Source: an uncultured Methanosarcinales archaeon (lineage in GTDB: Archaea; Nanobdellota; Nanobdellia; Woesearchaeales; DATDXC01). From it: DNA of 64,000 nt. The stretch is taken from contig CAZDZV010000001.1 in assembly GCA_964510025.1 (NCBI GenBank), positions 165,399 to 229,398 of the forward strand. Direction: 5' to 3'. Below the pieces are notes generated by a model. The model was not told the origin of the DNA and did not search any database. It was given only the letters and a program-made list of their open reading frames with translations. Every line of letters begins with the position of its first letter. Within the stretch, counting starts at the first letter, position 1. The position numbers were made by a program, and so were the translations under genes. Shown here piece after piece: positions 12,901 to 42,091 of this stretch.

Positions 12901-12973
12901 CATAGGTATGTTCTGAAAAAGCCATAACTGAACATAGCACTCCCACCAAAATTAATGTACACAGCTTATTCAT
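9923..12973 (-). CDS. Cys-rich secreted protein (1016 aa) with CBM4/9-like carbohydrate-binding module
   Basis: Signal peptide MNKLCTLILVGVLCSVMAFS/E. NLIKNPGFEDDFDHWEH...IYYDSIEII matches the usual start and end of CBM_4_9-type modules. There are four copies of a CCGDD motif (NCCGDDFAEYY, ACCGDDMLDNS, ECCGDDVDEYN, ECCGDDSGEHYNYY). Confidence 0.8.
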   Translation of the reverse strand: MNKLCTLILVGVLCSVMAFSEHTYVEVHYDGNWYTAATCEDANTCSHLVGSEDQPEMPFCSAEGTVSIRAAAWDDILGTTTKSYPGNPIYTVDWDADEADCICYMGPDHWVVYQSGVDTGNCCGDDFAEYYCGPGYTGCSAGEVVDGDGRNLIKNPGFEDDFDHWEHKSYDDTGADESQNYETIVNSGCYSEKCVKMETENRGRQEVTSAPIFLNPGSTYTIKVRYNTTLEHSVWVTLKDFDWKDISGDIVGRTYSWQEPGKNQWQTLTKVMTVPLVDAFGDPTASHEWRFLLHGNSPSGEDSPIYYDSIEIIGSSVCECGEPGIQDVCDVEGETGCWLNISGACCGDDMLDNSCNGEIGSSIGACDQGSYFIEPDYSQIVCDCMVGQDRWNIDGEAADSAECCGDDVDEYNKSVVCQTNSSQCEASAGADCAASCIPDSSLSNHACCNHPLDCVADDVCYRDVFCNDISCPEPPGPNNPPPTVPPHETYTNSTYSFDGKRHICLNGQWTDPDEDPLYCEALFGDDLSHFNADYNSDTRFWAKSGEYSGFGEYNRTFGIQECCGDDSGEHYNYYKNPDFDDQDDDACCSAAEDCVWNSTCYPAREEPYNISDEMRRCSDGSWSIPLELKYAWYEIPDTGCKERNTCGYCDNTNQQCYLPELGGCVDPGNWTLDHFCENGSWTSRTKLVALQLLDLVEKQGSEENYTLFCDSYQNTLNYFEYERHTTIEAKAWNFLEGYNNELDIFECDDNSVYTADQDKCVNKMCVLVYHQGTNKKVAFGTSLNQPINLLNDNRHFPFILLFPDMNLNDCDNAISKPQTGIYGNYSACNPAKAWYNRKTQSVIYSNQEIDLDEPNLWQKFLIWIRNPFKGIIDFIRNTLKPPQPHYDPQEDAWDFIKYTKDFNKIYLLKDGDKEIKGLMETNISRHEGKNTFFSVKYSHFDSDICSAVEAYNINLMNDRWGVGWDRESISCYASANNHYVQYMPAPPSPISGVQHNYLGFRTWLDLTARIRTHGLE

Positions 12974-13268: not shown

Positions 13269-14363
13269 TTGCCCGCCATCATCGGGCTTGGCGGGGCAAC
13301 AAGCTACGAGGATCTGAGATATGGCAGAATAAGCAACAAATGGGTAGTATTAGGGCTGGCCTATTCTTTCTTTATGTACATTATATTAATTGCATATTAC
13401 AGCATGAATAGCAGAATTTCCGGAACATACCTCATAGAGCTAGCTACTAATTTTATATTTGCTTTAGCAGTAGGCTTTGGATTATGGTATATTAGGGTAT
13501 GGACTGCTGGAGACGGCAAGCTTTTTATTGCATATGCTGCCCTACTGCCCTTATCTGTCTATACCAAAGGCTATCAGAAATATATACCTTGTTTTGTCTT
13601 TCTAACCAACATTTTTATATCTGCAGCAGCAATAATGGTCTTCTATGTCTTATTCAAGGCAGGATTGAGAAAATGCGCCCAGGTAGCCTTGACTTTTATT
13701 AGAGAATTTTTTAAGCTGAAAAATCTCCTTGAATCTGCGATAAGCTTATTCGCTATCTATTGGATTATTGATATCCTTTTTCATTTTTTACAGCTGGGAA
13801 ACAACCTTGTATTGAGAATATCATTTACTATATTCGCTTTTTCAGCGGTCAGGGCGAAATTTGGACCGAATACAGTATACGCTACTGCAGTTATCTCTGT
13901 GTTCAGATTATTTTTCGATGACTCTGTTTTCTCTGTCGGCTTCCTTACTAATTTTCTATTTCTGATATTTGTATGGAGATTATTCAGAAGCCTAGTCAGA
14001 GGAAGCCTCTCCAAATTGGCTGAAGATATTTTTTCAAAGGATGTTCCTGTGGATAAACTGGAGGAGGGCATGGTTTTAGGTGAAATACTGCGAGAAACCA
14101 GAGGGGGGTCGCAAACTATCAACTATGGGGGAAAAGCTTATGAAAAAACATCAAAAAATTTCCTTGACTTAGAAAATTTTCTGGATGAAGAACCTGAGGG
14201 CTTAACCAAGCGGCAGATAATGAAGCTTAAAAATATGGGGATCAAGGAGATAAAGGTGAGCCAGACGATCGCATTCGCCCCCTTTATCTTTCTTGGAGCT
14301 ATCCTAACTTTAATTGCAAAAGGAAACATTTTAATATTTATCCGAAACCTCTTTCAGCTATGA
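13269..14363 (+). CDS. A24-family aspartyl membrane peptidase (prepilin/preflagellin peptidase-like) with inserted soluble domain
   Basis: Polytopic membrane protein. The first Asp motif is SYEDLRYGRISN. The second catalytic motif, WTAGDGKLFIAYAALLP, matches G-x-G-D-x-K-L of PibD/FlaK-type enzymes. The terminal helix is AFAPFIFLGAIL. The start is a TTG, the only canonical start after the in-frame TGA at 13248. Confidence 0.7.
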   Translation: MPAIIGLGGATSYEDLRYGRISNKWVVLGLAYSFFMYIILIAYYSMNSRISGTYLIELATNFIFALAVGFGLWYIRVWTAGDGKLFIAYAALLPLSVYTKGYQKYIPCFVFLTNIFISAAAIMVFYVLFKAGLRKCAQVALTFIREFFKLKNLLESAISLFAIYWIIDILFHFLQLGNNLVLRISFTIFAFSAVRAKFGPNTVYATAVISVFRLFFDDSVFSVGFLTNFLFLIFVWRLFRSLVRGSLSKLAEDIFSKDVPVDKLEEGMVLGEILRETRGGSQTINYGGKAYEKTSKNFLDLENFLDEEPEGLTKRQIMKLKNMGIKEIKVSQTIAFAPFIFLGAILTLIAKGNILIFIRNLFQL

Positions 14364-14764
14364 AAGGTTTGAAGGTTAAGGGCAATTCTGCGGAAATTAG
14401 AGTGGATCCGAAGGTCTATCCGCTGGAGGCTGTTTATTCTGCAGCCTATGTTTTTTTGGATAAGGCGTATTTTATCCTTGATGGCGATCCTAAGAAGGAG
14501 ATTATCGTCAATCTTGAAGCAAAAGAAAAAAGCATGGGTGAGAAAGTAGCAAAAGAATTTCTTAATGAACTTATCAATTACGCTGATTACATAACGAGAG
14601 CCAAGCAGACAAAAAAACTCAGGGAGACAATCCTTCAAAGGGCGCTAATAACGAATGATCCACTTATGCTGGAGGATGATGTATCTGATGATTTTATAGA
14701 TGATCCTGAAGGTATTGCAATACCATGGGAGGAAAAGTATGGTAAGGATAAAGCTAAGCAATAA
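14360..14764 (+). CDS. HxsD-like small protein (His-Xaa-Ser system accessory protein candidate)
   Basis: ATGA overlap with the peptidase gene. IRVDPKVYPLEAVYSAAYVFLDKAYFILDG...EFLNELINYADYITRAKQTKKLRETILQRAL resembles my recollection of the HxsD family (TIGR03976, LLNDYxLRE-type motif). It is adjacent to HxsB-like and HxsA-like genes. The assignment is from memory and not searched. Confidence 0.4.
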   Translation: MKGLKVKGNSAEIRVDPKVYPLEAVYSAAYVFLDKAYFILDGDPKKEIIVNLEAKEKSMGEKVAKEFLNELINYADYITRAKQTKKLRETILQRALITNDPLMLEDDVSDDFIDDPEGIAIPWEEKYGKDKAKQ

Positions 14765-14930
14765 GTTATATAGGAAAAAAGCGGTTATTAAGGCACTAAA
14801 TGATTTCAAAGAAATTATGGACGGAAGAATACTGAATGAGGATATGGATATTGAAGTTCTTCCTAAAGAGCAAATAGAGAATTTAGACAAGGAATTCTGT
14901 AATTACGTTCTGGGTCTGATGAAAGGATAA
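14739..14930 (+). CDS. Second small HxsD-like/half-size paralog (63 aa)
   Basis: MVRIKLSNKLYRKKAVIKALNDFKEIMDGRILNEDMDIEVLPKEQIENLDKEFCNYVLGLMKG has the same layout as the preceding ORF: strand, then Y...A(V/I)..A...F, then a terminal EFxNyvL motif. It overlaps the upstream gene by 26 nt and ends 1 nt before the rSAM gene. Confidence 0.35.
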   Translation: MVRIKLSNKLYRKKAVIKALNDFKEIMDGRILNEDMDIEVLPKEQIENLDKEFCNYVLGLMKG

Positions 14931-14931
14931 A

Positions 14932-16293
14932 ATGGACTATGTGATGGCGAATTATCGGTCAAAAAGATTTGGCGATAAGTATTTCGTGACTACTGATCAT
15001 GGAAGCCACTGCATACTAAATGCCAAGGAATTCTCTAAATTGAAGCATAACAAGATGGATAGAAAATTGCTGGATAAACTGGAAAATAGCGAGGTTATCC
15101 TAAATACACAGAATATGGAAGAAGCCAGGGGATTGATGAGAAAAAGGTATAATTTCCTGTTCTCAGGGGCATCTTTGCATATCATAGTTGTAACATTGAG
15201 ATGCAATATGAACTGTATCTACTGCCATGCCAGTTCCAGAAATAAAAAGGAAGAAGGTTTTGATATGGATAAGGCGACAGCTGAAAAAACGGTAGATTTC
15301 ATAATGCAGGTGCCGCAACAGGATATCACGATAGAATTCCAGGGCGGCGAGCCCCTATTGAACTGGGAGGTTGTCAAGCATATAATTGAATACAGCCAGG
15401 AAAAGGCCAAGGCATTTGATAAGAACCTTATGCTCACTCTTGTGACAAACATGTCCTATATGGACGAAAATAAGATGGATTACCTGATAGATAAGGGGGT
15501 AGCGATATGCACATCTCTAGATGGCCCCAAGAAGCTGCATGACCATAACCGAGCATCATCAGGCAGCAACTATGAACAGGTGGTAAAGTGGATAAAGAGA
15601 TTCAATGAAGAATATAAAAAAAGAGCAATAGAGAACAGAAGGATAAATGCCCTAGTTACCTTGACCAAGGAAAGCCTGAAATACTGGAAGGAGATCATAG
15701 ATGAGTACTATCATTTGGGGCTGAGGAGCATACATCTTAGATTCCTCAACAAGCTGGGTGTTGCCAAGAAGGCATGGTCTTCAATCAATTACAGTGTCGA
15801 TGATTATCTTAGGTTCTGGAAAAAATCCGTTGATTATATAGATAAAATTGGAAACCAAGAATTTGAAGAAAGAATGGTAAAGATAATGGAAAACAAGATA
15901 GCCAAGCAGCATGACCCTAATTATCTAGATTTAAGAAGCCCCTGCGGTGCAGCTATTGGCCAGCTGGCATATCACCACAATGGCGACATATATACATGTG
16001 ATGAAGCAAGGATGATTGGTGAAGACCTTTTTTTGCTAGGAAATGTGAAAAAGGACAAATATAAGGATATAGTAACAAGTGATAAGGCATGTGCAACTGT
16101 AGCTGCTTCCATAAACGACCAGTATGTCTGCAATGATTGTGTCTACAAGCCTTATTGCGGCATATGCCCCGTCTGTAATTACGCGGAAACAGGCAGCGTC
16201 ATAGGAAGAATAAGCGAGTCAGCCAGATGTAAGATCTTTAAAGAACAGTTTGATTGGGTTGTGAAAGAAAGATTTATAAATAAGAAAAACTAG
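14932..16293 (+). CDS. Radical SAM/SPASM-domain maturase, HxsB-like
   Basis: CX3CX2C motif in VVTLRCNMNCIYCHAS, plus GGEPLL. The C-terminal auxiliary-cluster region is CGAAIGQLAYHHNGDIYTCDE...CNDCVYKPYCGICPVCNY (SPASM-type). An ~85-aa N-terminal extension precedes the cluster motif. It lies directly upstream of the His-Xaa-Ser repeat peptide gene. Confidence 0.75.
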   Translation: MDYVMANYRSKRFGDKYFVTTDHGSHCILNAKEFSKLKHNKMDRKLLDKLENSEVILNTQNMEEARGLMRKRYNFLFSGASLHIIVVTLRCNMNCIYCHASSRNKKEEGFDMDKATAEKTVDFIMQVPQQDITIEFQGGEPLLNWEVVKHIIEYSQEKAKAFDKNLMLTLVTNMSYMDENKMDYLIDKGVAICTSLDGPKKLHDHNRASSGSNYEQVVKWIKRFNEEYKKRAIENRRINALVTLTKESLKYWKEIIDEYYHLGLRSIHLRFLNKLGVAKKAWSSINYSVDDYLRFWKKSVDYIDKIGNQEFEERMVKIMENKIAKQHDPNYLDLRSPCGAAIGQLAYHHNGDIYTCDEARMIGEDLFLLGNVKKDKYKDIVTSDKACATVAASINDQYVCNDCVYKPYCGICPVCNYAETGSVIGRISESARCKIFKEQFDWVVKERFINKKN

Positions 16294-16304
16294 TATTAGA
16301 TAAA

Positions 16305-16613
16305 ATGAAGATTCCTAGGTTAAAGAAGAAGATAAGGTCTTTTCTTACAAAAGAGGATGGAAAGATAAGCAAGGAAGCTTTGCTGAAGACAGGGATTCTA
16401 CTAAGCGCTGCTGCCCTAGCTTCATTGAATGCTGCTGCAGATTGCCCAGCTGACAGTTCCCTCAGCCATAATGATCATTGCAATGACCTGAGCATAGGAT
16501 ATGACGAACCTAGTGCAGTTGCGACAGCAGGGCATAATCATGGACATGGGAGCCATGCGTCACATGCAAGCCATGGATCACACGGAAGTCATGGAAGCCA
16601 CAATAGCTGGTGA
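16305..16613 (+). CDS. His-Xaa-Ser repeat peptide (HxsA-like candidate precursor), 102 aa
   Basis: It has a basic N-terminus, a hydrophobic stretch (ALLKTGILLSAAALASLNAAA), two Cys, and the C-terminal HNHGHGSHASHASHGSHGSHGSHNSW. Seven H-x-S triplets lie at nt 16545-16607, encoded with mixed His (cat/cac) and Ser (agc/tca/agt) codons. Confidence 0.7.
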   Translation: MKIPRLKKKIRSFLTKEDGKISKEALLKTGILLSAAALASLNAAADCPADSSLSHNDHCNDLSIGYDEPSAVATAGHNHGHGSHASHASHGSHGSHGSHNSW

Positions 16614-17377
16614 ATATGTTAAAAAAAAGACAGATCTACGTATCCTTAATTGTTTTATTATTGATAGTTGGGGCTGTTTTTGTCATAACTAGAATAAAGG
16701 AAATTGAAAAACCAAAAAAACCTGAAACAGAGCAATTAAAAGACTGCACAGGGATCAATGACATATATCTTCATTGTATGAGCCTCATGGCTGCATCAGA
16801 TTCTTTTTGCCAAACAGAGGAATGGGCAGTTGATACCTACGAGCTTCAAAAAGATAGAGATTTTTGCCTTTATTTTAGAAAATATAAGGAAGCAATTATA
16901 AAAAAAGACAGAGAAGTTTGCTTAGAAATCCTAGACCTTGATAATTTTGACTCATATGACTGCTCAAAGGACGAATTTGGATGCCCTGACCAGCCACTAA
17001 ATTGTTACATAGCATTGTCCGAGGATGCATCTGTTTGTGATGAGTTAGATAGGATAATAATAAAGGGATTTACCCAAGAAGAAAAAAAGGATTACTGTAA
17101 TCTTGTGTTCGAGTTAGAAAAAGAGGAAAGACATTATGAAACTGATTTATTCAAAAATAGGAATAAAGATACACAAAAAATAATGACAATGATACAATCA
17201 ATAAGAAGAAAGGATCCGGCATTGTGTGTACATATGGATAAACACTCAAGAGATTTTGTAGCTTGTCATATCTATAGCAGCCTATATACCTATGGTTCGG
17301 GAAATATAGACCAAGACTTCTGCGACCAGTTCAAGGAATGTGATCCTAAAGAAGGCATGCTACAAATTGAAGATTAG
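16610..17377 (+). CDS. Membrane-anchored Cys-rich protein (255 aa)
   Basis: The GTG start overlaps the TGA of the peptide gene; an alternative ATG lies at 16616. The N-terminal anchor is IYVSLIVLLLIVGAVFVIT. The ectodomain has 14 Cys, mostly in D/F-x-C contexts. I recognise no family. Confidence 0.6.
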   Translation: MNMLKKRQIYVSLIVLLLIVGAVFVITRIKEIEKPKKPETEQLKDCTGINDIYLHCMSLMAASDSFCQTEEWAVDTYELQKDRDFCLYFRKYKEAIIKKDREVCLEILDLDNFDSYDCSKDEFGCPDQPLNCYIALSEDASVCDELDRIIIKGFTQEEKKDYCNLVFELEKEERHYETDLFKNRNKDTQKIMTMIQSIRRKDPALCVHMDKHSRDFVACHIYSSLYTYGSGNIDQDFCDQFKECDPKEGMLQIED

Positions 17378-19227
17378 AGACCTTCGATAAATATATTAAA
17401 TAAATTATCTAGCTTTAGATTCATTTTGTCTTCTTTTGAAGAATAATCTTCAGGTTCATCATCCAGAAGGCCTAACTGCCCAAAATCAGATATATCCATT
17501 ACATTGGCTATCCTCTTTTGCGGTTGATTTTGCATAATGAATTTATTATTTGAATAAATATCGCCATTACAGTCAATGCACCAGCCCCTTGTAAACAAAT
17601 AGGAGTCCTGCCAAACCTCCTTGTTGATAACATCTATTTCTTTATCCACCAAAAAATCTCTAATTTTTTGCATTTCGCTTTCAAGTACCTTAAAATCTTT
17701 TATGTGCCAATCATCATAAAAAGCTGGTAGAAAATTGAATTTCCTAAAGCCCTTATTATACAAATATTTGAAATTTTCAAAGAAATTACCGCAATTGTTA
17801 TTAGACACAACCATATTTAGAGAAACATAATCCACAAAAGGTGTTAGGACCTTAATAACCTTGCTAGATTTTTTTCCCCTATTTTTGGTCTGCCATTTAT
17901 CTTTACCGTCAACACTTACCCTTAGTTCAACATTATTGAGCCTAAAATAATTAATTATCTCTTTTGTAAGCAATACCCCATTTGTGGTTAACACAAATTT
18001 AGTATTGTCATTTTTGGAAGTGGCATAGTGGATTATTCTCTTAACCAGATCTAATTCCAATAAGGGTTCCCCCCCAAAAAACCTAACATAGTAAAAAGGG
18101 GATTTTAAATTCAATAATAGATCTAGACTCTTTTTTGCGGTTTTAAAAGATATAGATTCTTCTTTTTTTACAGTTATACAATATTTGCAATCAAGATTGC
18201 ATTTATATGTAACAACCAAAACCAACACCGGCAACCTATTAGATATCTTAAACAACTTAAGAAATTCCTGACTTATTTCCTTTTTTTCCCTTCCCTTAAA
18301 GTAGGCCTTATATAGTCCCTTACAAGATTTGCTTAAAATGCATTTTTTACATAAAGCAAATTTATGCTTAAAGGATTCTATGTTATCCTTTAATTTACCA
18401 GTATCTTCCTTATTCAGATCAGTAGTGCTAGTACTGTATCCTTTATCCAATGCAGCAAACAAACCAAGTGTTTCTATCCTGCCATCTTCACCAATATACA
18501 AGCTTGAGCTTATATCCTGAAAATGTATTTTTTTTGTATTAAGAATGCTATCTCTGAAAATACATAATGGGAAATCTTCCACATCTATCGTATCCACTAA
18601 CTCTTTAGCCTTGAATAAAAAGTAATTTAAAGAAGTTAACTCTAATAAAGACGGGGAGTACTTATTGTAATCATCTTTCAACCTACCAAAAGGTCCCAGC
18701 ATCAAGATTCCCAATTCTCTTATCTTCAGGGCATCTACCAAAAACAAATAGTCGTCTAACTGCTTAATATTGCCGGACCAGATGGGGATGTTTAAACATA
18801 CAGTTTCATCAGCTTCCAAAAGATTTTTTATACCCTTGATGGTCTGCTTGAAGCTGCCCCGAGTTCTTGTCCAGGATTCATGTATCTTTTCAGTTGCCCC
18901 AAATAGTGTTATATTGAAGCTTGAAACCGCCCCTTTAACTTTTTTGATATATCCTTTATAAGAAAAAAACCTTCCGTTCGAGGTTAACACTGTCTTATAG
19001 CCCAATTCTTTAGCGATCGCCAAAATCTCCAACAGATCCGGATGAAGTGTTATTTCACCCCCAATTGGATGAAATATCCGATAGCCTTGTTTTACTCCCT
19101 CCTTTAATTCTTCTTTTATAGAACTTAGGCTCCTGTATTCATTTTTTTGGATATTTGGATCCACAGCGCAACCAATACAATTATTATTACAAGAATTATT
19201 GACATTAAGGTATAATATCTTTCTCAT
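17374..19227 (-). CDS. Fusion of two radical SAM domains (617 aa)
   Basis: Domain 1 has NNSCNNNCIGCAV, IGGEIT, HESWTRTRGSFKQTIKGIKNL, and CKKCILSKSCKGLYKAY. Domain 2 has TYKCNLDCKYCI (aa 343-350) and FGGEPLL. ATGA-type 4-nt overlap with the upstream gene. Confidence 0.8.
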   Translation of the reverse strand: MRKILYLNVNNSCNNNCIGCAVDPNIQKNEYRSLSSIKEELKEGVKQGYRIFHPIGGEITLHPDLLEILAIAKELGYKTVLTSNGRFFSYKGYIKKVKGAVSSFNITLFGATEKIHESWTRTRGSFKQTIKGIKNLLEADETVCLNIPIWSGNIKQLDDYLFLVDALKIRELGILMLGPFGRLKDDYNKYSPSLLELTSLNYFLFKAKELVDTIDVEDFPLCIFRDSILNTKKIHFQDISSSLYIGEDGRIETLGLFAALDKGYSTSTTDLNKEDTGKLKDNIESFKHKFALCKKCILSKSCKGLYKAYFKGREKKEISQEFLKLFKISNRLPVLVLVVTYKCNLDCKYCITVKKEESISFKTAKKSLDLLLNLKSPFYYVRFFGGEPLLELDLVKRIIHYATSKNDNTKFVLTTNGVLLTKEIINYFRLNNVELRVSVDGKDKWQTKNRGKKSSKVIKVLTPFVDYVSLNMVVSNNNCGNFFENFKYLYNKGFRKFNFLPAFYDDWHIKDFKVLESEMQKIRDFLVDKEIDVINKEVWQDSYLFTRGWCIDCNGDIYSNNKFIMQNQPQKRIANVMDISDFGQLGLLDDEPEDYSSKEDKMNLKLDNLFNIFIEGL

Positions 19228-20222
19228 CTTAAGCTTCTTTTCTGCCTTAAGCTATTTATCTCTTTTTCTATCTGAGATGCCCCTACTAATTTTATGTAAT
19301 CACAAAATATACCTTCACAAAGCCTTATCCTTGGACACCCCTCACAGGATTTTATTTTTATTCTGTATCTTTTAAACTTATTTTCTGCAGATTCTGATTG
19401 CCTTTGAAACGTAAGATTAGAATTAACGCAGAAATTAAATTCCCTTGCAGCAAATAGGCTGTAATTCTCTATATTTCCTTCCTTGTCTTTGTATATTTTT
19501 CCACTAGTATCAAATATATGCACATCGCCTCTATCCATAAAATCCTGGCTGAATATACACAAAGGAAAATCCTCAATCTCTATATTTAAAAATGATTTAA
19601 ATAATGAAAGCTGATCTTCTAACACTAAAAGCTTTTCTAGAGGCACAAATAACTTGTAATAATTTCTTCTAGCGCGCCCAAGAGGTACAAGATTAAAAAG
19701 ATCTATGTCCCTAATTGCCATTTTTTCCAATAATTCCATAGTCTCTTTGACCTTATCAAAACTTTTCTTCCAAACCAAATAGTTTATACCTACCTTTTTT
19801 GTAAATGACCTCAAGTTGCCTATACCTTGAATAGTCTGTCTAAAACTACCTGGTGTTCTTGTCCAAGATTCATGTATATCTTTATTGGGGCCACAAAGAG
19901 TGATGTTAAAGTGCGTTATTCCTGCATCAACCATTTTTTTTGTAAAACTAGGGTAAGAAAACATCCTTCCATTAGAGGTGATATAAACTTCATCATACAG
20001 TTCCTTTGCCTTCTTAAGAATCTGAAAAATATTATCCTGTATTGTAACTTCCCCTCCGGCGAGATGAAGATTTTTGTATCCTTTCTCAGCCCCAAGCTCC
20101 AAATCCCTGAATATACCGCTTATATCCCTACCATTTTTGGGCTTATTGAGATTATTATCCGCACAACCCAGACAATTATTATTGCATCCATTCTCTGTTG
20201 AGACAAAAAATATTTTCTTCAT
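19224..20222 (-). CDS. Radical SAM protein (332 aa)
   Basis: Motifs are ENGCNNNCLGCAD, AGGEVT, HESWTRTPGSFRQTIQGIGNL, and the C-terminal CEGCPRIRLCEGIFCDY. It is a paralog of domain 1 of the 617-aa protein. Confidence 0.8.
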   Translation of the reverse strand: MKKIFFVSTENGCNNNCLGCADNNLNKPKNGRDISGIFRDLELGAEKGYKNLHLAGGEVTIQDNIFQILKKAKELYDEVYITSNGRMFSYPSFTKKMVDAGITHFNITLCGPNKDIHESWTRTPGSFRQTIQGIGNLRSFTKKVGINYLVWKKSFDKVKETMELLEKMAIRDIDLFNLVPLGRARRNYYKLFVPLEKLLVLEDQLSLFKSFLNIEIEDFPLCIFSQDFMDRGDVHIFDTSGKIYKDKEGNIENYSLFAAREFNFCVNSNLTFQRQSESAENKFKRYRIKIKSCEGCPRIRLCEGIFCDYIKLVGASQIEKEINSLRQKRSLR

Positions 20223-22909
20223 CTTATTTTCATCTTGGATTGACTTTTTCTCAAATGGGGTTCTAGTTCATCAAAACCGTAAATTTTCGCATAATCTACA
20301 AATATGCCCTCACAATTTGCATTATAAATACATTTATTGCACCGCATACTTTTTGTTTTTCTAGTTCTGCAAATATATCTTAAAATTTCTTTTTTATCTT
20401 TGCTAAATTCCTCATTATAATCTTGTTTTACATGCTTAATACCGCCCCCATTAATTATACATTGGGGGATATTCCTTACAATAACTTCTTTGTTTAACTC
20501 CTTAAAAATCCCTTTTAGACTAGACAATTTTGGAACAAGCAACCTGTAATCTTCTATATCGTAAAAGGGCTCGATAAGATTAAGCATTATTTTCTTTCTT
20601 GAGTGTTTAAGCCTTTCTTTTACTTCTAATAAATTAAACTTATTTAAATTTAGTGTCTCTATTTCTTTATCATCTTTTTTTTTGTTATAAATTATTCTTT
20701 TGTATCTGCTGCACACCCCTTCCATAAAACAAAAACTGCATAAATTTTTGGAACAGTCAAGAAAGTAATCCCAATAATCTGCACAATCGTAAAACTCACT
20801 TAAATAATAAAAGATATCTAACTTATCCGGAATAAATTGGGGGAATGCTTCAAAATAGTACGGTTCTAAGAACTCAAAAGAAACCTTTAAATCGAACTTT
20901 TTTGAAATAAGAAAAATTTTATCCAAATTTCTTCTAAATTTTTTGTAGTCGATTTTGAACCTTCTGTAATCATTTAAAGCTGCCCCTTTTGGCAAAACTC
21001 CCTGTAGATTAAATCTTTTTATGCCCCTTTTGGATAAATCCTGCATTAACAAAGGAATAGAATCAAAATTCTTTTGCATACAGACAGACTGCACCATTAC
21101 ACTTACAGCTTCATGTCCCATGATATTATCAACAGCTCTTAGTATTTGTTTATAGCCGCCCTTAATATTTGTCAGATCGTCATTTACTTCTTTATAGCCA
21201 TGAACTGAAATTGTAAATTTTTTCAAACCCTTTTTTATTACCTCATCAGTAACTTTCTTGATAGAAAAAAGTCTTCCATTGGTTACTATAGATAATTCAA
21301 ATCCTTTTTTTTGAAAAAGGGTCATTAGTTTCAGCAACACATTATAGTAAAGTGTTGGTTCGCCTCCTGTAAAGGATATTTCTTTAAAATTTGAAGACAA
21401 AGCTTCCTTCACTTGGTCTTTCAGCTGCATATTTCCGACCTGTAATTTTTCCCTGGCAAAACAGGAAATACAATGATTATTGCACTTATCACCCAACTTG
21501 AGGTTATAACATTGATTCCTCTGCTTAACGTTCATGACTAATTTTTCAAATTTTCTAGCAATTCCTTCTAAATCAAAGAAAAAAAGTGAATATATAAACC
21601 GTTGTTTAGGTCCCTTTGGCAAAAATTTCAATTTATTCTCCATAATCTCTATTTTCCCCATTTTTTCAAGATCTGAAATCTCTTTCTTAAAATCTTCGGC
21701 CAGCTCCATATTGAATCGTTTCCTGTAATCTTCCAGGTCAATGGCTTCATCATAAGCAAGCCCATTCATAACATAACGTAATTTTTGCTCTTTTCTGCTT
21801 ATCTCAATTCCATCGAATACATAGCCATTCTGCCTGTAACGACATGAATTAAATATATATGAACATGAGAATTCACCTAAAGCAAAACAAGAGCCCTCAT
21901 TTTGGGAATCATAAGAATATGTAAATTTCATCTTTTTATAGTTTGTTGAAGGAAAAAACCAAGGAGAGGCTGTTCTTGGGTTGTCTAGCGTTGGTCTGTA
22001 CAAACCATAATTAAGGGGCATTTTGCCTTTTATAATTTTATTGTACAGACTCCTGATTTTATTATTAAGCTCCTTATAAAATGCCTCCTCATCAGAGTAA
22101 TAGTAATTTTGGATATACTCAGTCGTTGGTTGTAGTGGATATAATGATATGAAATCTGGTTCCAGATCCGCAATTTTTAAGATGCTGTCCAAAATAGTCT
22201 TCACGCCATCCTTATACAACCCAATAATTAAGTCTACATTAATTTCTTCAAATCCTAATTTTTTAATATCGCTCACCACTTTTTTTATTTGTGCGTATTC
22301 CTGATATCCCCGATTCTCAGATTTTAAAACGGATTTATCAAGTGTTTGCACACCGAGGGAAATTCTATTAAAATCAAAATCTCTTATCAGTCTCAATTTT
22401 TCAGAAGTAATGCTATCTGGATTACATTCAAACGTTTTTTCCCCTTTTGTCTCAAAATTAAAATTTTCAAAAATAGCCGCTAATATCTTTTTTATCTGTT
22501 CCATTCTAAGAATAGAAGGTGTTCCTCCACCGATATATAAACTCTTAAATCTTATATCCTGAAAAGTCTTGCCAAATTGGGACATTTGTTTGGATAATTT
22601 TTTGATATAGATTATAATTTCTTCTTCAGACCCCAATTTTTTAGAGGGGTACATACAATAATTACACTTGCCCCTACAAAAAGGGATATGCACATAAAAA
22701 TTAATATTATTTTTAGCCTTTCCCTCCCTTATCTTGTTTATGTGCTCACTCCATTTTTGTTTTATGTCCCCCAAAGAATAATTCTGTGTTTCTTTAATTA
22801 GATCAAATAAATCAGGTAACAAAAAATTATTTTTATAGCCCCCCTCTTTAATTAAGCCTGTGAATCTATTAAAAAAGTCTAATTTTTGATTAAAAAGAGC
22901 AATATTCAT
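20219..22909 (-). CDS. HemN-like radical SAM domain fused to a second radical SAM domain (896 aa)
   Basis: The N-terminal half has YVHIPFCRGKCNYCMY and LYIGGGTPS, the coproporphyrinogen-III-oxidase-like HemN/HemZ pattern. The C-terminal half has LGDKCNNHCISCFA, TGGEPT, then CSFCFMEGVC and CNKCIYNANCEGIFVDY. Confidence 0.8.
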   Translation of the reverse strand: MNIALFNQKLDFFNRFTGLIKEGGYKNNFLLPDLFDLIKETQNYSLGDIKQKWSEHINKIREGKAKNNINFYVHIPFCRGKCNYCMYPSKKLGSEEEIIIYIKKLSKQMSQFGKTFQDIRFKSLYIGGGTPSILRMEQIKKILAAIFENFNFETKGEKTFECNPDSITSEKLRLIRDFDFNRISLGVQTLDKSVLKSENRGYQEYAQIKKVVSDIKKLGFEEINVDLIIGLYKDGVKTILDSILKIADLEPDFISLYPLQPTTEYIQNYYYSDEEAFYKELNNKIRSLYNKIIKGKMPLNYGLYRPTLDNPRTASPWFFPSTNYKKMKFTYSYDSQNEGSCFALGEFSCSYIFNSCRYRQNGYVFDGIEISRKEQKLRYVMNGLAYDEAIDLEDYRKRFNMELAEDFKKEISDLEKMGKIEIMENKLKFLPKGPKQRFIYSLFFFDLEGIARKFEKLVMNVKQRNQCYNLKLGDKCNNHCISCFAREKLQVGNMQLKDQVKEALSSNFKEISFTGGEPTLYYNVLLKLMTLFQKKGFELSIVTNGRLFSIKKVTDEVIKKGLKKFTISVHGYKEVNDDLTNIKGGYKQILRAVDNIMGHEAVSVMVQSVCMQKNFDSIPLLMQDLSKRGIKRFNLQGVLPKGAALNDYRRFKIDYKKFRRNLDKIFLISKKFDLKVSFEFLEPYYFEAFPQFIPDKLDIFYYLSEFYDCADYWDYFLDCSKNLCSFCFMEGVCSRYKRIIYNKKKDDKEIETLNLNKFNLLEVKERLKHSRKKIMLNLIEPFYDIEDYRLLVPKLSSLKGIFKELNKEVIVRNIPQCIINGGGIKHVKQDYNEEFSKDKKEILRYICRTRKTKSMRCNKCIYNANCEGIFVDYAKIYGFDELEPHLRKSQSKMKIR

Positions 22910-22961
22910 TTCTAATAAATTTAAGCTTTAAATTTATTTCCTCACCGACATTACTTATCCC

Positions 22962-23879
22962 TTACGCTATTGATCTAAGTTTAACATATGTTTTCCAATA
23001 GCCTTCGCATATCTCATCATATTTACAGGTACCGCATTTACCAATCTTTGTTCTTCCTATTTTCCTTCGATTTTCTTCAGCATACCTATTTACAAAGTCT
23101 GGAGCTAAATGCTCTGTATGGAATTTTTTGACTTCATGTAGCTCACTTATCCGGTGATGGTATTTTTCACCAACAAAACATAAGGGATAATACCTTATAT
23201 GCCAATGACTTATTTTCCTTTCATTTCCAAACTCCAGTATTTTATCAACATAAGTAGAAACTTCTTCATAAGTTGGGACCAATTCAAAAAATCTTTTTTT
23301 TGGGCCCCCGTGTGTTGGGTCGACAAAAATAAACTCAGAATTATCAATGCCCAAACCATAAATAAATTTTCCAATTTCTAATAGATCTTTATAGTTTTGT
23401 TTTACTATTGTGGTATTTGACCCTATATTCTTAAATCCGATATTCTGAAGATTTTTTATTCCTTGTATTAGTTGCTGAAAGCTTCCCGGAACTTGCGTTA
23501 ACCTATCATGTAACTCTGGGTTGTGACCATGTATGGAAAAAACAACATGGTTTACACCTTCATCGATTATCTTTTTTGCAAATTCCTTATTTGAAAACAT
23601 CCTACCATTAGTTGCAAACATAATTGTCTCGAAACCGAACTTCTTTGCAAATGACACAATTTCAAAAATATCTCTCCTTATTGTTGGTTCCCCACCAATA
23701 AGTTCCAAGTATCTACTTCCATGTTTTTTCGCCCTCAAAATATCCTCCTTTATTTCTAGTGTTGGTTTGTCCAATACTTTTTCTCTTTTATCCTCATTAC
23801 AACAAAATATGCATTTATTATTGCAGGTATAACCCATGAATACTACTGTCTTTTTAGTTTTCATTTCTGAATAAATCAA
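22962..23879 (-). CDS. Radical SAM protein (305 aa)
   Basis: Motifs are GYTCNNKCIFCCN, IGGEPT, HDRLTQVPGSFQQLIQGIKNL and CGTCKYDEICEGYWKTY. It overlaps the upstream gene end by 26 nt; an alternative start is M6 at 23864. Confidence 0.8.
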   Translation of the reverse strand: MIYSEMKTKKTVVFMGYTCNNKCIFCCNEDKREKVLDKPTLEIKEDILRAKKHGSRYLELIGGEPTIRRDIFEIVSFAKKFGFETIMFATNGRMFSNKEFAKKIIDEGVNHVVFSIHGHNPELHDRLTQVPGSFQQLIQGIKNLQNIGFKNIGSNTTIVKQNYKDLLEIGKFIYGLGIDNSEFIFVDPTHGGPKKRFFELVPTYEEVSTYVDKILEFGNERKISHWHIRYYPLCFVGEKYHHRISELHEVKKFHTEHLAPDFVNRYAEENRRKIGRTKIGKCGTCKYDEICEGYWKTYVKLRSIA

Positions 23880-25242
23880 GTTCTTTTAACTTAGATATTA
23901 TCAAAGATTTCAGCCTTTTGGTTTCTTTACAATTCTCAGAACACGGGTAATATAAAAGTGTCAGTTCCTTACCATTTAAAGGGAATCTTGTTTTAGAAAT
24001 TAGTTTTTTCTCTTCTTGCTGACTAGTGAAGCTTTTTTTAGAAAACTTTCTAACACAGCATTCAGGATAGCCATACAAACTTCCCAATTCAAGATTAAAT
24101 TTTAAGTTGTCTCTTTCATTGAAAGTACCCGAATTCAAAATATTTGTCAGTTCACAAGCAGATTCTGCCTTCCGTATATCCTGGGATAGAAAGAGGTAAT
24201 CTCCCTCTTTAATCCTTGGTATTTTTTCAAGCCCGACAATAGCATCTTCGACTTTTTTACCTTTCAACTCTATCCTCAAAACTTCTTTCAGACCCAACAA
24301 AAAATATATTTTATCCAAATAAAAGTCATCATTCTTAGGTATTCTTTTAATTCTTTGGACAATTTCTTTCTTATGCAAAACATATTCTATGGGTCTAAAC
24401 TCATCTCCGCCAAAAATCCTCAAATAGCTCCCCCATACACCTGAGCATTTTTTCTTATAAGCACAGTCTTTACACTTTTTAAGGAAAGTGACTTCTGAAT
24501 TCTCTACTGTCAGCCCTTTTGATAACCCAAAAAGACTGCTTGGCAAAACACAATTAGGGAAATGATAAAGTTCCACTTTATAGCCATTTTTAATCAACCT
24601 TTTTATTGGATTTTCTAAAACTTTAGCTAATTCTGTTAGTTTTATGGCAACCAATCTCTCATTCTTTTTAGCTTGTTCCGTTAGCTTAGGGTTCATTATT
24701 ATTACTTTCACAAAGTCTTTACTGTCAAAATTATTAATAAGAAAATCAGCTATTTGATCAAAGTAACTATAGTTAAGTCTGTGCAATAATATCCTAATCT
24801 CCAAAGGCACATTATTCTTAATCAAGTTTTTTATCCCCCGAATCTTATACCTAAAACTATTGGGGGTTCTTGTGATCGAATCGTGTATCTTAGCATTTGG
24901 CCCGTATAAAGTAGTCACAATCTTCAAGTGCGGTATTTTTGATATCTTTTTAGCAAAGTCTTTATAATAAAAGGATTGAGAATTTGTCAAAAGCCCTACC
25001 TCTTCAGGATTCTTTTGGGAGATATATTCTAATATCCTTAACAAATCCTTTCTTAATGTCGGTTCGCCCCCGTTGAGTTCTATGTGCTTTGATATTTTAA
25101 GAATATCATTAACTTCCCTTAGGATATCCTTAAAGGTAGGATTTTCTTTATTTTTTCTCCTAGGAACAGGACACGAAATACAATTATCATTGCAGTCATA
25201 TATGACAGGAACAAAAGTCTTGAAATCTTTCTTATTTTTCAT
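23854..25242 (-). CDS. Radical SAM protein with extra C-terminal Cys-containing domain (462 aa)
   Basis: Motifs are IYDCNDNCISCPV, NGGEPT, HDSITRTPNSFRYKIRGIKNL and CKDCAYKKKCSGVWGSY. An additional ~170-aa tail contains LYGYPECCVRKF and YYPCSENCKE. Confidence 0.8.
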   Translation of the reverse strand: MKNKKDFKTFVPVIYDCNDNCISCPVPRRKNKENPTFKDILREVNDILKISKHIELNGGEPTLRKDLLRILEYISQKNPEEVGLLTNSQSFYYKDFAKKISKIPHLKIVTTLYGPNAKIHDSITRTPNSFRYKIRGIKNLIKNNVPLEIRILLHRLNYSYFDQIADFLINNFDSKDFVKVIIMNPKLTEQAKKNERLVAIKLTELAKVLENPIKRLIKNGYKVELYHFPNCVLPSSLFGLSKGLTVENSEVTFLKKCKDCAYKKKCSGVWGSYLRIFGGDEFRPIEYVLHKKEIVQRIKRIPKNDDFYLDKIYFLLGLKEVLRIELKGKKVEDAIVGLEKIPRIKEGDYLFLSQDIRKAESACELTNILNSGTFNERDNLKFNLELGSLYGYPECCVRKFSKKSFTSQQEEKKLISKTRFPLNGKELTLLYYPCSENCKETKRLKSLIISKLKELDLFRNEN

Positions 25243-26156
25243 TCTTTGATAGCCCTAAACTCCTTATCCCCAAATTTTTCAGGATACTCCTTCCAAGGCC
25301 CCTCACACATATTATCGTATTTGCATTCTCTACACTGCGAAAATTTGGATTTTCCTTCTTTCACCCTAGTATATTTATAATCATCAACAACCACATCAAA
25401 ATCTATTATTTTTGTTTCTGGTATAAATCTCTCTGAGACATAATCCTCAAATCCATGCATCATACAATAAGGCATTCCTTCTGCCATAACATTAATCCCT
25501 GCATCGATCCCTATTTGAAGGCCCCTATGAACATAGGGTGCAACTAGACTCATTTTAGGCACCATTTCATCATAATATTTATGGGCGTTCCCTATTGGGT
25601 GAACAAATGCAAATTGAAACTGATCAACCCCCAATTTGACAAGTAATTTTGCTATCTCTGGAAGATGTTTGTAATTTGGTTTTACCACAACTGAGTTAGT
25701 TATAATCTTTTGGTCAAGGAGCCTTAAATTCTTTATTGCTTGTATTGTCTGTCTGAAGCTGCCGGGACTTCTGGTCAAGAAATCATGAACATTTGGATTA
25801 TGTCCATGCACTGCGGGAGAAAATTCATTTGCACCAGAGGCTATTAATTTCTTTGTGAATCCCATATTTGACAGCATCCTGCAGTTCGACTGAATCTGTA
25901 TTATGCCATAGCCTATATCCCTAGCATACCCCACCAGATCAAACAAATCTGGCCTTATTGTAACTTCTCCTCCTGTGAAGACAATATCCTCGCAGTTGGC
26001 TCTAGCCTTTGAAATCTTCTCCTTTACCTCTGCTGTTGGTAAATTACCCAGGTGTTTTTTATGAGCCTGAACACAGAATCTGCAGCTATTATTGCATACA
26101 AAGCCTGTTTTAAGGTCTAATCTCTTGCCCCCCATAGACAGAAGAGAAGAATTCAT
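25239..26156 (-). CDS. Radical SAM protein (305 aa), first gene of the rSAM operon
   Basis: Motifs are GFVCNNSCRFCVQ, TGGEVT, HDFLTRSPGSFRQTIQAIKNL and CRECKYDNMCEGPWKEY. It is a paralog of 22962..23879. It starts only 17 nt downstream of the Rpp30 stop. Confidence 0.8.
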   Translation of the reverse strand: MNSSLLSMGGKRLDLKTGFVCNNSCRFCVQAHKKHLGNLPTAEVKEKISKARANCEDIVFTGGEVTIRPDLFDLVGYARDIGYGIIQIQSNCRMLSNMGFTKKLIASGANEFSPAVHGHNPNVHDFLTRSPGSFRQTIQAIKNLRLLDQKIITNSVVVKPNYKHLPEIAKLLVKLGVDQFQFAFVHPIGNAHKYYDEMVPKMSLVAPYVHRGLQIGIDAGINVMAEGMPYCMMHGFEDYVSERFIPETKIIDFDVVVDDYKYTRVKEGKSKFSQCRECKYDNMCEGPWKEYPEKFGDKEFRAIKE

Positions 26157-26173
26157 TTATATAATCTTTTTGT

Positions 26174-26752
26174 TTATCTGGATGAAAGAATCCTCTTGAC
26201 AGCTTCCAGGTCTTTAGGGGAGCGCATCTCGTAAGGGTCAGAGGCAAATGAAGCCAATATGGTCTTGACTTTATATTTATTACAGATTCTAATGTTCTGT
26301 TTCATCCTCCCAATAATCTTTGACCTTTGTTCACCCTTATTATCCAGTATAAGGTTAAAGGAAAAGGCCATTGTAACATTATTCTGGCTGGCGAACCTGC
26401 ATGCTGTATGATTTAGTCCAGATGCACGATGGTGAATGAAATCCCGTTTTCCTGTATTTTCAAGGTTAAATGCTACGAAATCTGTGTTCTTCTCTATTAC
26501 ATGGCGGTCGGGATTTTGAACCAGTACATATTTGGTATGCTTCTTAGCATTTTTTATGTTTTTTGGGAGAGCCAATAAACCGAATTCTTTGATTTTTTCC
26601 TTAGCTTGGGCAATCTTTACGCCGTAATCATATATAAATACAAGATTATCAAAACCTAGACTTCTGCCCATTCTAAGAAAATCCTCCTCATTATTATGGG
26701 GAAAAACAAAATCCAGCATTTTAATAAGAGATAGATTCACCTTTATAAACAT
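26174..26752 (-). CDS. rnp3: RNase P protein component 3 (Rpp30)
   Basis: The C-terminal two-thirds (HHRASGLNHTACRFASQNNVTMAFSFNLIL...IGRMKQNIRICNKYKVKTILASFASDPYEMRSPKDL) follows the archaeal Rpp30 pattern (GxDHv...a..n.va.gfsl..ll...r..ll......l..ky.v...ltS.A......R.prDl). The start may be M12 at 26719. Confidence 0.7.
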   Translation of the reverse strand: MFIKVNLSLIKMLDFVFPHNNEEDFLRMGRSLGFDNLVFIYDYGVKIAQAKEKIKEFGLLALPKNIKNAKKHTKYVLVQNPDRHVIEKNTDFVAFNLENTGKRDFIHHRASGLNHTACRFASQNNVTMAFSFNLILDNKGEQRSKIIGRMKQNIRICNKYKVKTILASFASDPYEMRSPKDLEAVKRILSSR

Positions 26753-35010: not shown

Positions 35011-35073
35011 CTAAATCTTAAGCCAAAAATTATTTATAGTCCGCCAGATAACTATCGGGTGGGTGGTTAAGTC

Positions 35074-35685
35074 ATGCAGATTAAGCGCAATGTTGCCTTT
35101 CAGATAAGAATAAAGGATATCCTTGATTCTAGATACGTAAAGGGCGACGGTGACTGGTCACCCAACTATCTTGAGCTCGGAGAAGACCATGTCTCCAGGA
35201 TCAACCTAGTTGGGGTGGTTGTATCGAAAAACACAGGAGACAACCACAATAGTCTTCTGTTAGACGATGGTTCCGGCAGGATTGCCATAAGATCTTTTGA
35301 CCACGAAAAGCCGTTGGATGCAGACATAGGTGATTTTGTACTGATCATAGGGCGGCCCAGAGAGTATGGAAACCAAAGATATGTGGTCCCCGAGATCATA
35401 AAACAGCTGGAAAACGGAAAATGGCTTGAACTAAGAAAACTTCAACTGAGGGGAAAATTCCCAAAAAAAATTGTTGCTAACAAAGTGCAAGAAAAAGAAC
35501 CTGCGGAAAATCCGTTGGATAGAATCTTTCAACTAATAAGAAATTCGGATTCGGGGGATGGAGCAGATTTCCAAGATATAATAAAGAAGAGTAACATAAA
35601 AGACAGTGAAAAGATCGTACAGAATCTTCTCGAAAATGGAGAAATCTTTGAGATAAGCCCTGGAAAACTAAAGATATTAGAATAA
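35074..35685 (+). CDS. RPA32/Stn1-like OB-fold protein with C-terminal winged helix
   Basis: SRINLVGVVVSKNTGDNHNSLLLDDGSGRIAIRSFD...GDFVLIIGRPREYGNQRYVVPEII is the RPA2-type OB pattern (v.ivG.V.....t...l.DDgtG.I.v). The C-terminal ~60 aa are wH-like. It lies directly downstream of mcm. Confidence 0.55.
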   Translation: MQIKRNVAFQIRIKDILDSRYVKGDGDWSPNYLELGEDHVSRINLVGVVVSKNTGDNHNSLLLDDGSGRIAIRSFDHEKPLDADIGDFVLIIGRPREYGNQRYVVPEIIKQLENGKWLELRKLQLRGKFPKKIVANKVQEKEPAENPLDRIFQLIRNSDSGDGADFQDIIKKSNIKDSEKIVQNLLENGEIFEISPGKLKILE

Positions 35686-36501: not shown

Positions 36502-36587
36502 AGGCTAAAAATTGAAAATCACATTTATATACTTTTTGTTTATTTTGAACAAAAAGATTTAAATAAGGACTACGATTTGCCTTTAAC

Positions 36588-42089: not shown

Positions 42090-42091
42090 TT

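Follow-up and report, generated by a model that had tools for sequence, protein, structure and literature searches.

A 64,000-nucleotide stretch of an uncultured archaeon (contig CAZDZV010000001.1, positions 165,399 to 229,398 of the forward strand), referred to here as the window, carries between positions 13269 and 26156 a cluster of 12 genes that includes a small protein ending in His-Xaa-Ser (HxS) triplets. An earlier note, made from the sequence, had described this cluster as a peptide cassette of the Hxs type running head-on into an operon of radical S-adenosylmethionine (rSAM) genes, and all 12 open reading frames (ORFs) were found where it had placed them (Table 1). We consider it very probable that the 12 genes form one Hxs-type maturation unit. 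With considerably less assurance, we lean towards the fuller reading that this is an expanded HxsA4-type maturation system of the core chromosome of a DPANN (Woesearchaeota/Nanoarchaeota-like) archaeon, for which an antiviral role at the envelope is the favoured one.

Genes of the cluster

Table 1. Predicted genes of the Hxs-type cluster, in order along the window (positions counted from its first nucleotide; aa, amino acids).
Feature	Position	Strand	Length (aa)	Basis or remark
Whole cluster	13269-26156	+ and −		ORF list: 12 ORFs, plus- and minus-strand operons convergent
A24-family GxGD-type aspartyl membrane peptidase, archaeal A24 C-terminal domain	13269..14363	+	364	Candidate leader peptidase
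HxsD, small adaptor	14360..14764	+	134	TIGR03976
HxsD_rel, second, shorter HxsD-like protein	14739..14930 (longest ORF from 14700)	+	76	NF038315
HxsB, radical SAM/SPASM maturase	14932..16293	+	453	TIGR03978
HxsA4-like precursor	16305..16613	+	102	NF038313; leader, hydrophobic segment, spacer, HxS repeats
CysR, Cys-scaffold membrane-anchored protein	16610..17377	+	255	Recurrent HxsA neighbour
Two-domain rSAM: HxsC-like (~1-320) and PapB/HxsB-like rSAM (~326-562)	17374..19227	−	617	NCBIfam
HxsC-like rSAM	19224..20222	−	332	Closest paralog is the N-domain of the 617-aa protein
Fusion: HemN-like rSAM (~56-430, HemN_C), HxsC-like rSAM (~455-720), CxxCx5C-repeating tail	20219..22909	−	896	NCBIfam, Pfam
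HxsC-like rSAM, R305a orthogroup	22962..23879	−	305	HxsC4 151 bits, HxsC 102 bits, both under cut-off
HxsC-like rSAM with C-terminal DUF483	23854..25242	−	462	Closest to canonical HxsC
HxsC-like rSAM, R305b orthogroup	25239..26156	−	305	Most widely conserved accessory rSAM across loci

Three proteins of the plus-strand cassette pass the cut-offs of NCBIfam Hxs models. HxsB scores 431.3 bits against its model (cut-off 370) over residues 8-445, has Pfam Radical_SAM and SPASM matches, and is 34% identical (271 bits) to the HxsB of our canonical reference, the hxsD-hxsB-hxsC-hxsA operon on plasmid 4 of Aeromonas salmonicida. Its homologs fall into more than 120 clusters from Woesearchaeota and Nanoarchaeota at 55-72% identity, many of them named HxsB, and its nearest non-Hxs families in NCBIfam are PapB, SCIFF and QhpD, maturases of ribosomally synthesized and post-translationally modified peptides (RiPPs). 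HxsD scores 52.5 bits (cut-off 50) and HxsD_rel 49.1 bits (cut-off 41), so the identification of an Hxs-type cassette with an HxsB-like enzyme, proposed in the earlier note, holds. HxsD has 513 homolog clusters, many carrying that name in public records. Its AlphaFold2 model (predicted local distance difference test score, pLDDT, 81.8) has a beta-beta-alpha-beta-beta plus long-helix fold; the best Foldseek match in the PDB, to small alpha/beta adaptors of the Pcc1 and Rpb11 kind, reached only E = 0.02, and there is therefore no significant fold assignment. On the same model and search we rejected HxsD as a PqqD-type recognition element.

The protein encoded by the first gene of the cassette falls slightly short of the Pfam Peptidase_A24 model (PF01478; 25.3 bits, cut-off 26.5) and passes Arc_PepC (24.5 bits, cut-off 23.4). 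We collected 25 orthologs from the Hxs loci of archaea, candidate phyla radiation (CPR) bacteria, Omnitrophota and a deltaproteobacterium; 19 match Peptidase_A24 (E ≤0.01) and 15 match Arc_PepC. Residues D15 and D82 are invariant among them, as are N23 and K84, and the motif around D82 reads W-[TS]-A-G-D-[GA]-K-L (AGDGKL in the window protein). A profile of the 25 orthologs gave no match among PDB sequences.

The 102-aa protein matches HxsA4 at 52.8 bits (cut-off 55), with model positions 1-93 of 93 aligned. Bacterial orthologs (CPR, Omnitrophota, deltaproteobacteria and Elusimicrobiota) pass this model at 64-112 bits, and archaeal ones score 34-53 bits, under the cut-off. It carries seven C-terminal HxS triplets and ends in Trp, the number of triplets being that given earlier; no other HxsA-type precursor was found in the window. 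Across about 60 orthologs, HxsA starts with a basic leader of 30 aa that keeps its register and ends in Gly, with the consensus P-K-x-K-K-K-x3-F-L-x2-E-[ED]-G-K-I-S-K-x6-G; the Gly lies exactly seven residues past I-S-K in 50 of 60 sequences. Ala or Ser takes its place mainly in deltaproteobacterial and Elusimicrobiota loci that have no visible peptidase. Beyond the hydrophobic segment the orthologs have a spacer, variable but marked by HxN[S/D] and G[T/S]HxH motifs, and then 0 to 54 HxS repeats, and the C-terminal residue is Trp, Tyr or Phe in 37 of 49 sequences. The mature region has a median of 50 aa, with 9 His, 19 Ser+Gly and 1 Lys+Arg, and is devoid of Lys and Arg in 28 of 58 orthologs. 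The number of HxS repeats correlates with the rSAM count too weakly to be of use (Spearman 0.37, p = 0.044, n = 30, uncorrected for phylogeny).

Some relatives of this protein are much larger. Giant HxsA proteins of ~500 aa, with 27-41 HxS repeats and a C-terminal domain of ~300 aa, are encoded in two CPR loci (L040:3311-4825 and L051:11508-13001), and the HxsA 'peptide' can therefore be a sizeable protein. A third CPR locus encodes an HxsA of 258 aa with 54 HxS repeats (L056:11429-12205), and tandem HxsA pairs are present in L007, L022 and L029.

CysR, with 14 Cys residues, had no match in Pfam, NCBIfam or PADLOC, and a large homolog search returned only the query. Profile-profile comparison (hhalign) nevertheless linked the CysR groups with one another: the window group with that from CPR loci (97.6% probability, E 4.5e-12), and the CPR group with that from Omnitrophota (97.7%). 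With an iterated hidden Markov model, 42 loci yielded 48 ORFs; 29 of these lie no more than 150 nt from HxsA, and an N-terminal membrane helix is present in most. About 12 Cys columns are virtually all that is conserved in what is a fast-evolving family, and the single-sequence AlphaFold2 model (pLDDT 44.7) was too poor for use.

Pfam Radical_SAM matches all seven rSAM proteins of the cluster. A pattern count found nine CX3CX2C motifs in them (one in HxsB; two, one, two, one, one and one in the 617-, 332-, 896-, 305-, 462- and 305-aa proteins), and none in the other 33 window ORFs of at least 150 aa, in agreement with the nine rSAM domains in seven ORFs, eight of them on the minus strand, that had been reported from the sequence. 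The catalytic motifs are intact in all nine domains and in the peptidase. HxsC or HxsC4 is among the top NCBIfam matches of every minus-strand protein; it is the top match of the four single-domain proteins, and in the 617- and 896-aa fusions the top match belongs to the other domain. The 462-aa protein scores 168.7 bits against HxsC (TIGR03977, cut-off 267.9) and 31.3 bits against Pfam DUF483; searched against PDB sequences, it gave weak generic rSAM matches only, and none for DUF483. R305b scores 165.9 bits against HxsC4 (NF038332, cut-off 500), and the 332-aa protein 88.8 against HxsC and 88.0 against HxsC4, both under cut-off. The 617-aa protein matches HxsC at residues 8-228 and PapB at 334-526. 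In the 896-aa protein, the HxsC/HxsC4 match covers residues 458-677; residues 56-430 match STM4012 (179 bits), HemZ (158) and HemN (~147), each under cut-off, together with Pfam HemN_C (28.9 bits, cut-off 24).

When the six HxsC-like domains are aligned, they have in common C-N-[ND]-x-C-x-x-C, GGE, [TS]-N-x-[RQ] and a C-terminal CxxCx5CxG, which looks like an auxiliary-cluster site. Canonical Aeromonas HxsC ends in the same CxxCx5C; it matches the 462-aa protein over the whole domain at 90 bits and the other five at 19-36 bits. The peptidase, the Cys-rich protein and the additional rSAM genes of the earlier note are thus all real, but the rSAM genes, counted there as extra, do not form an unrelated set: all six carry HxsC-like domains, so that the HxsC missing from the cassette is instead present in multiplied form. 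We rejected these proteins as enzymes of haem, molybdenum-cofactor or tetraether-lipid synthesis, for which the scores were far under cut-off and never above those for HxsC/HxsC4, and the C-domain of the 617-aa protein as a viperin (NF038283, 71 bits, cut-off 180).

The two operons are less regular than had been described. On the plus strand, 4-nt overlaps (14360-14363 and 16610-16613), a 1-nt gap (14930/14932) and an 11-nt gap (16293/16305) agree with joins of 4-nt overlaps or gaps of no more than 12 nt, but the second HxsD-like ORF overlaps the first HxsD by 65 nt from ATG 14700 or by 26 nt from ATG 14739. The latter is probably the start, because GGAGG lies 8 nt upstream. The minus-strand genes are six in succession as claimed, but more loosely packed than implied, with three 4-nt overlaps, one 26-nt overlap and one 52-nt gap at 22909/22962. 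The terminal stop codons, TAG at 17375-17377 on the plus strand and TAA at 17376-17374 on the minus strand, do overlap, although only 2 nt of the 4-nt TTAG at 17374-17377 are common to both.

The cluster is flanked by archaeal housekeeping genes (RNase P p30, RNase Z, Hjc, TFE-alpha, TrmB, MCM, PolD DP1 and DP2, and Cdc6/Orc1), which places it in an archaeal core chromosome and backs the archaeal host suggested earlier.

Recurrence of the parts in other genomes

An alignment of HxsB was searched against species-representative genomes, and the best 79 of at least 599 matches were used as loci, onto every ORF of which the window proteins and domains were mapped. Represented among the 79 are DPANN archaea, CPR/Patescibacteria, Omnitrophota, Elusimicrobiota, deltaproteobacteria and a small number of others. 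The 41 archaeal loci contain the A24 peptidase in 33 cases, HxsD in 38, the second HxsD in 30 and HxsA in 36, nearly always in the order peptidase, HxsD, HxsD2, HxsB, HxsA. Where at least 8 kb of flanking sequence was available on both sides, one or more HxsC-like domains were present in 14 of 19 archaeal and 9 of 10 CPR loci, and three or more in 8 of 19 and 8 of 10 respectively. L016, L010 and L085, the last from a metagenome, repeat the convergent layout of the window, Cys-rich protein included. CPR loci place the same orthogroups between HxsA and the peptidase, all on a single strand, and Omnitrophota, as in L069, L075 and L077, have a compact set of HxsD, HxsD2, HxsB, the Cys-rich protein, HxsA, two HxsC-like genes and the peptidase. 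The recurrent parts are therefore an A24 peptidase, one or two HxsD, HxsB, a leader-bearing HxsA, an HxsA-adjacent Cys-scaffold protein and one to eight HxsC-like rSAMs.

Individual rSAM genes differ in how widely they are found. By a strict score criterion, orthologs of R305b are present in 6 archaeal and 15 bacterial HxsB loci, and orthologs of R305a in 5 and 8. The 332-aa protein has its closest paralog in the N-domain of the 617-aa protein, and vice versa (~208 bits), and both have orthologs only in near relatives (L010 and L016 for the former). A full-length ortholog of the 617-aa protein is found in L016, and stand-alone homologs of its C-domain in L010 and in CPR loci; the HemN-HxsC fusion also occurs in L004, and stand-alone HemN-like genes in CPR loci.

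In the reverse direction, a metagenome scan seeded with R305b orthologs yielded 36 clear orthologs with at least 8 kb of total flank. HxsB was within reach of 15, the peptidase of 14 and one or the other of 19, and 27 lay in batteries of two or more HxsC-like genes. The minus-strand rSAM genes thus recur beside HxsB in related genomes. We conclude that their adjacency to the cassette is not accidental, because the same parts recur and the association was recovered in both searches, and that the battery is a frequent modular partner, not an obligatory one, because some R305b orthologs are solitary and 5 of the 19 archaeal loci have no battery.

A stand-alone DUF483-like protein with a Y-P-E-C-C motif, which matches the C-domain of the 462-aa protein, was seen in 11 related loci (e.g. 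L115:6573-7568) and is absent from the window. Also absent from the window are long rSAM-like ORFs with CxxxCxxC and a possible N-terminal cobalamin-type domain, seen in 25 related loci (e.g. L121:3817-5514). Some archaeal metagenome-assembled genomes have two separate HxsB loci (L007 with L023; L022 with L072).

A proposed route of maturation and its alternatives

The canonical Hxs system (TIGR03976-03979) is attributed to Haft and Basu (2011), as cited in PMC13128918. The statement of the earlier note that Hxs is functionally uncharacterised is outdated: in E. coli, HxsD-HxsB-HxsC-HxsA is an antiphage system that blocks the entry of phage DNA (Li et al., Nat Commun 2026, PMC13128918). In that study HxsB, HxsC and HxsD were each needed for a non-canonical N-terminal cleavage of HxsA, and HxsC bound HxsD. 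Processed HxsA carried +8 Da on its last repeat, the only change mapped, and the enzyme installing it could not be tested. Matured HxsA, which is rich in Arg and His, bound DNA and was held in the periplasm via a peptidoglycan-binding domain; the distribution reported was 99.7% Pseudomonadota and 99.8% four-gene (PMC13128918). Our literature search found this single functional study, with its preprint, and no publication on archaeal, DPANN or CPR Hxs, on HxsA4/HxsC4, or on a linked A24 peptidase or Cys-scaffold protein. Models for HxsA4, HxsC4 and HxsD_rel are already in NCBIfam, and archaeal HxsB and HxsD are named in public records, so that, with Hxs studied in E. coli, the window holds an undescribed variant of a known system. 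The earlier description of it as an undescribed system is right for the architecture, but this is widespread in DPANN archaea, CPR bacteria, Omnitrophota and Elusimicrobiota, and some of its parts already have names from automatic annotation.

The window and canonical systems have in common an HxsB ortholog, an HxsD that passes its model, an HxsC-like rSAM core with CxxCx5C, and a substrate that combines tandem HxS repeats with an N-terminal region for export or processing. The logic would also be the same, cytoplasmic rSAM maturation being followed by N-terminal processing and then by action outside the cytoplasm. They differ in that the window has six HxsC-like domains together with a HemN-like and a PapB-like domain, where the canonical system has one HxsC, and in its two HxsD genes, dedicated A24 peptidase and Cys-scaffold membrane protein. 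Its 12 genes form two convergent operons with the HxsC-like genes on the opposite strand, as compared with one D-B-C-A operon (e.g. L160). The canonical system is carried on conjugative plasmids (592 plasmid records, 365 of them conjugative) and (pro)viral contigs, none of these being of the expanded type, whereas the window system lies in an archaeal core chromosome. Closer to the window are the NCBIfam variant models: the match of HxsA to HxsA4 spans the entire model, the 76-aa protein scores above the HxsD_rel cut-off, and HxsC4 is the best match of both 305-aa rSAMs, although far under its cut-off (at most 173 against 500, tested orthologs included).

Class III signal processing by FlaK, PibD and PilD offers a second comparison. 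In the window protein both catalytic Asp motifs are present, together with the C-terminal domain of archaeal A24 peptidases, and HxsA, the candidate substrate, has a basic n-region, a conserved Gly and a hydrophobic segment after it. By contrast, the HxsA leader is long (30 aa), strongly conserved and like that of a RiPP. There are also likenesses to RiPP clusters with several rSAM enzymes (PapB ranthipeptides, SCIFF, QhpD), these families being the next-best matches of HxsB and the small leader-bearing precursor adjoining its maturase. Here, however, the repeats are of His and Ser, not Cys, no precursor Cys is conserved, and the density of rSAM domains is far higher.

We propose the following route, the steps of which lean by analogy on the E. 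coli system and on general RiPP and class III signal logic. The 102-aa HxsA precursor would be made with its conserved basic 30-aa leader, which would keep it in the cytoplasm with HxsB, the two HxsD adaptors and the HxsC-like enzymes. Six HxsC-like domains, one HemN-like and one PapB/HxsB-like domain may then introduce several radical-mediated modifications into the spacer and the HxS repeats. The A24 (GxGD) peptidase would remove the leader at the conserved Gly, at the junction of leader and hydrophobic segment; for HxsA as its substrate we see an even chance. Outside the cell, the His/Ser-rich product might stay anchored by the short hydrophobic segment or be freed at the AxA-like site, and might work with the adjacent Cys-scaffold membrane protein. 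In the weakest step, the product would act as an envelope-level barrier to incoming viral DNA. This maturation logic is well supported; the chemistry of the product and its physiological role are ones that we infer. An antiviral role is favoured by homology with the E. coli proteins, being the only activity of any Hxs system to have been tested, but for the window system it is somewhat doubtful, and binding of metal, another surface function or a released RiPP are serious rivals to it.

Several observations weigh against this reading. The 102-aa protein, taken for HxsA in the earlier note, matches HxsA4 end to end but falls just under the cut-off of that model, and it fails the canonical HxsA model (TIGR03979; 19.8 bits, cut-off 121.65). 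None of the battery proteins passes HxsC (best 168.7 bits, for the 462-aa protein; 85-104 for the rest) or HxsC4, for which the best tested ortholog reached 172.8. No HxsC-like gene lies within 10 kb in 5 of the 19 full-flank archaeal loci, and about half of the R305b orthologs have no HxsB in reach, some being solitary (L105, L116, L118 and L120). Cleavage by the peptidase is questioned by the shortness of the hydrophobic segment that follows the Gly (median 13 uncharged residues), behind which there is often an AxA-like site. It is also questioned by position −2, filled by Lys or Arg in classical archaeal class III signals and by neither here, the basic residue being at −3. Because of the short segment and the AxA-like site, HxsA could be a plain Sec substrate cut by signal peptidase I. 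The association of the Gly with the peptidase was unconvincing in the raw table and became apparent after curation by hand; we take it as a hint only, because no more than two or three independent lineages underlie it. A direct carry-over of the E. coli mechanism is made harder by the mature HxsA of the window, which has 0 Lys+Arg, 5 Asp+Glu and 11 His, where the canonical repeats are Arg-rich (H-R-S-rich in Aeromonas), and which lacks the wall anchor or peptidoglycan-binding domain that follows those repeats. The cluster also lies among housekeeping genes, in conserved synteny beside RNase P p30, with no neighbouring defence genes or mobile island, and a PADLOC scan of ten cluster proteins gave only viperin cross-matches of the rSAM cores, with a 2023 library that has no Hxs model.

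The composition of mature HxsA fits metal coordination better than DNA binding, and this is one reason for considering that the cluster might make a released, heavily modified His/Ser-rich peptide with a metal-binding, antimicrobial or signalling function, a RiPP in the usual sense. The leader would then serve for enzyme recognition only, and the hydrophobic segment with its frequent AxA-like sites, which resembles a Sec signal peptide with a long n-region, would be the export signal. The maturase relatives of HxsB, the small size and the His and Ser+Gly content of the mature region, the conserved Cys scaffold of the partner protein and the vertically conserved position of the cluster on the chromosome all agree with such a product. 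We nevertheless think it unlikely, since the sole experimental data on Hxs concern a protein effector in antiphage defence (PMC13128918), neither NCBIfam nor Pfam revealed a transporter or the usual RiPP-export peptidase domain in the cluster, and some HxsA orthologs are the ~500-aa proteins of L040 and L051. In class III processing, an A24 peptidase normally leaves the hydrophobic segment on its product, and a dedicated one would do so here.

The two remaining alternatives would divide the cluster. It is quite improbable that the A24 peptidase is a general prepilin or pre-archaellin peptidase, syntenic by descent, with HxsA processed by another protease. A24 peptidases normally act on pilins and archaellins, the HxsA signal departs from theirs in its −2 position and short hydrophobic segment, and synteny with RNase P p30 shows vertical inheritance of the region in Woesearchaeota. 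Homologs with both invariant Asp residues, however, occur in CPR, Omnitrophota and deltaproteobacterial Hxs loci in another place, downstream of the rSAM battery, and also in batteries from the reverse search, and the window contains no pilus or archaellum assembly genes. Still less probable is it that the minus-strand operon is a separate pathway of cofactor, haem-like or lipid chemistry that merely adjoins the peptidase-HxsD-HxsB-HxsA core. The two operons are transcribed separately, they differ in G+C, some loci have one without the other, and there are weak rSAM matches to AhbD, NirJ, MoaA and Tes. Those matches are far under cut-off and no higher than those to HxsC/HxsC4, and the C-terminal CxxCx5C is common to the battery and canonical HxsC; without the battery the locus would have no HxsC. 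In CPR and Omnitrophota, moreover, the orthogroups share the strand of the unit and are enclosed by it, with HxsA on one side and the A24 peptidase on the other, and the association was recovered in forward and reverse searches.

Under the preferred reading of one Hxs-type unit, there is a large and differently built branch of Hxs in archaea and candidate-phyla bacteria, which alters the known range of these systems and their minimal parts. It brings two candidate parts beyond the published system, the A24 peptidase and the Cys-scaffold protein, which bear on HxsA cleavage, on export and on an extracellular partner. With six HxsC-like domains, a HemN-like domain and HxsB around one 102-aa substrate, the pathway would rank among the densest rSAM maturation pathways known. 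More tentatively, and with a chance that we put below even, DPANN archaea, CPR bacteria and Omnitrophota may share an ancient gene set, exchanged between the two domains, that builds a new class of extracytoplasmic His/Ser-repeat proteins by an exceptionally long chain of rSAM steps. A locus would have as many as nine rSAM domains, and with them its own GxGD leader peptidase and a Cys-scaffold partner. If so, the A24 peptidase would be a candidate for the protease behind the unexplained non-canonical N-terminal cleavage of E. coli HxsA, and the product would belong to the core envelope of cells that are ultra-small and depend largely on hosts, whether an antiviral gate or a device for metal or host interaction, with a chemistry new to RiPPs. 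An antiviral product would mean envelope-level defence in organisms with very small genomes; otherwise, the Hxs machinery would be in use for another surface function.

Neighbouring genes and related loci

The minus-strand rSAM battery has a G+C content of 0.329, the plus-strand cassette 0.384 and the rest of the window 0.406; the lower value of the battery could stem from separate acquisition or from amino-acid bias. The RNase P p30 gene (26174-26752, minus strand) shares its strand with the last rSAM gene and lies 17 nt upstream of it. In archaeal loci it recurs next to the Hxs cluster, sometimes adjoining the peptidase and sometimes the rSAM battery, and in L013 HxsA abuts it with no battery in between. 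That RNase P p30 can adjoin the battery or HxsA directly suggests gain and loss of the battery at one constant place in the chromosome.

Directly upstream of the peptidase gene are the genes for three very large, probably surface-exposed proteins, all on the minus strand: 9923-12973 (1016 aa, 58 Cys, no family match), 7448-9805 (785 aa, with a Laminin-G/ConA-like domain) and 1285-7047 (1920 aa, with Ig-like domains). At least eight Woesearchaeota Hxs loci (L002, L006, L007, L009, L010, L016, L022 and L027) have a homolog of the 1016-aa protein at this position, which could reflect either synteny and nothing more or a functional tie with the surface product.

On the other side of the cluster, replication genes extend over 32998-43300, with MCM at 32998-35010, the large and small subunits of PolD at 36995-42089 and Cdc6/Orc1 at 42092-43300. 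From these genes the window may lie near a replication origin. Two large ORFs have no Pfam match (49026-50792, 588 aa, and 58673-60814, 713 aa, both on the minus strand), and a scan of the window for tRNA genes found none.

Hxs genes were also seen on 15 (pro)viral contigs of IMG/VR (L161-L175), which carry HxsB, 27-37% identical to that of the window, with a single HxsC of canonical type; HxsA was found in few of them and the expanded rSAM type in none.

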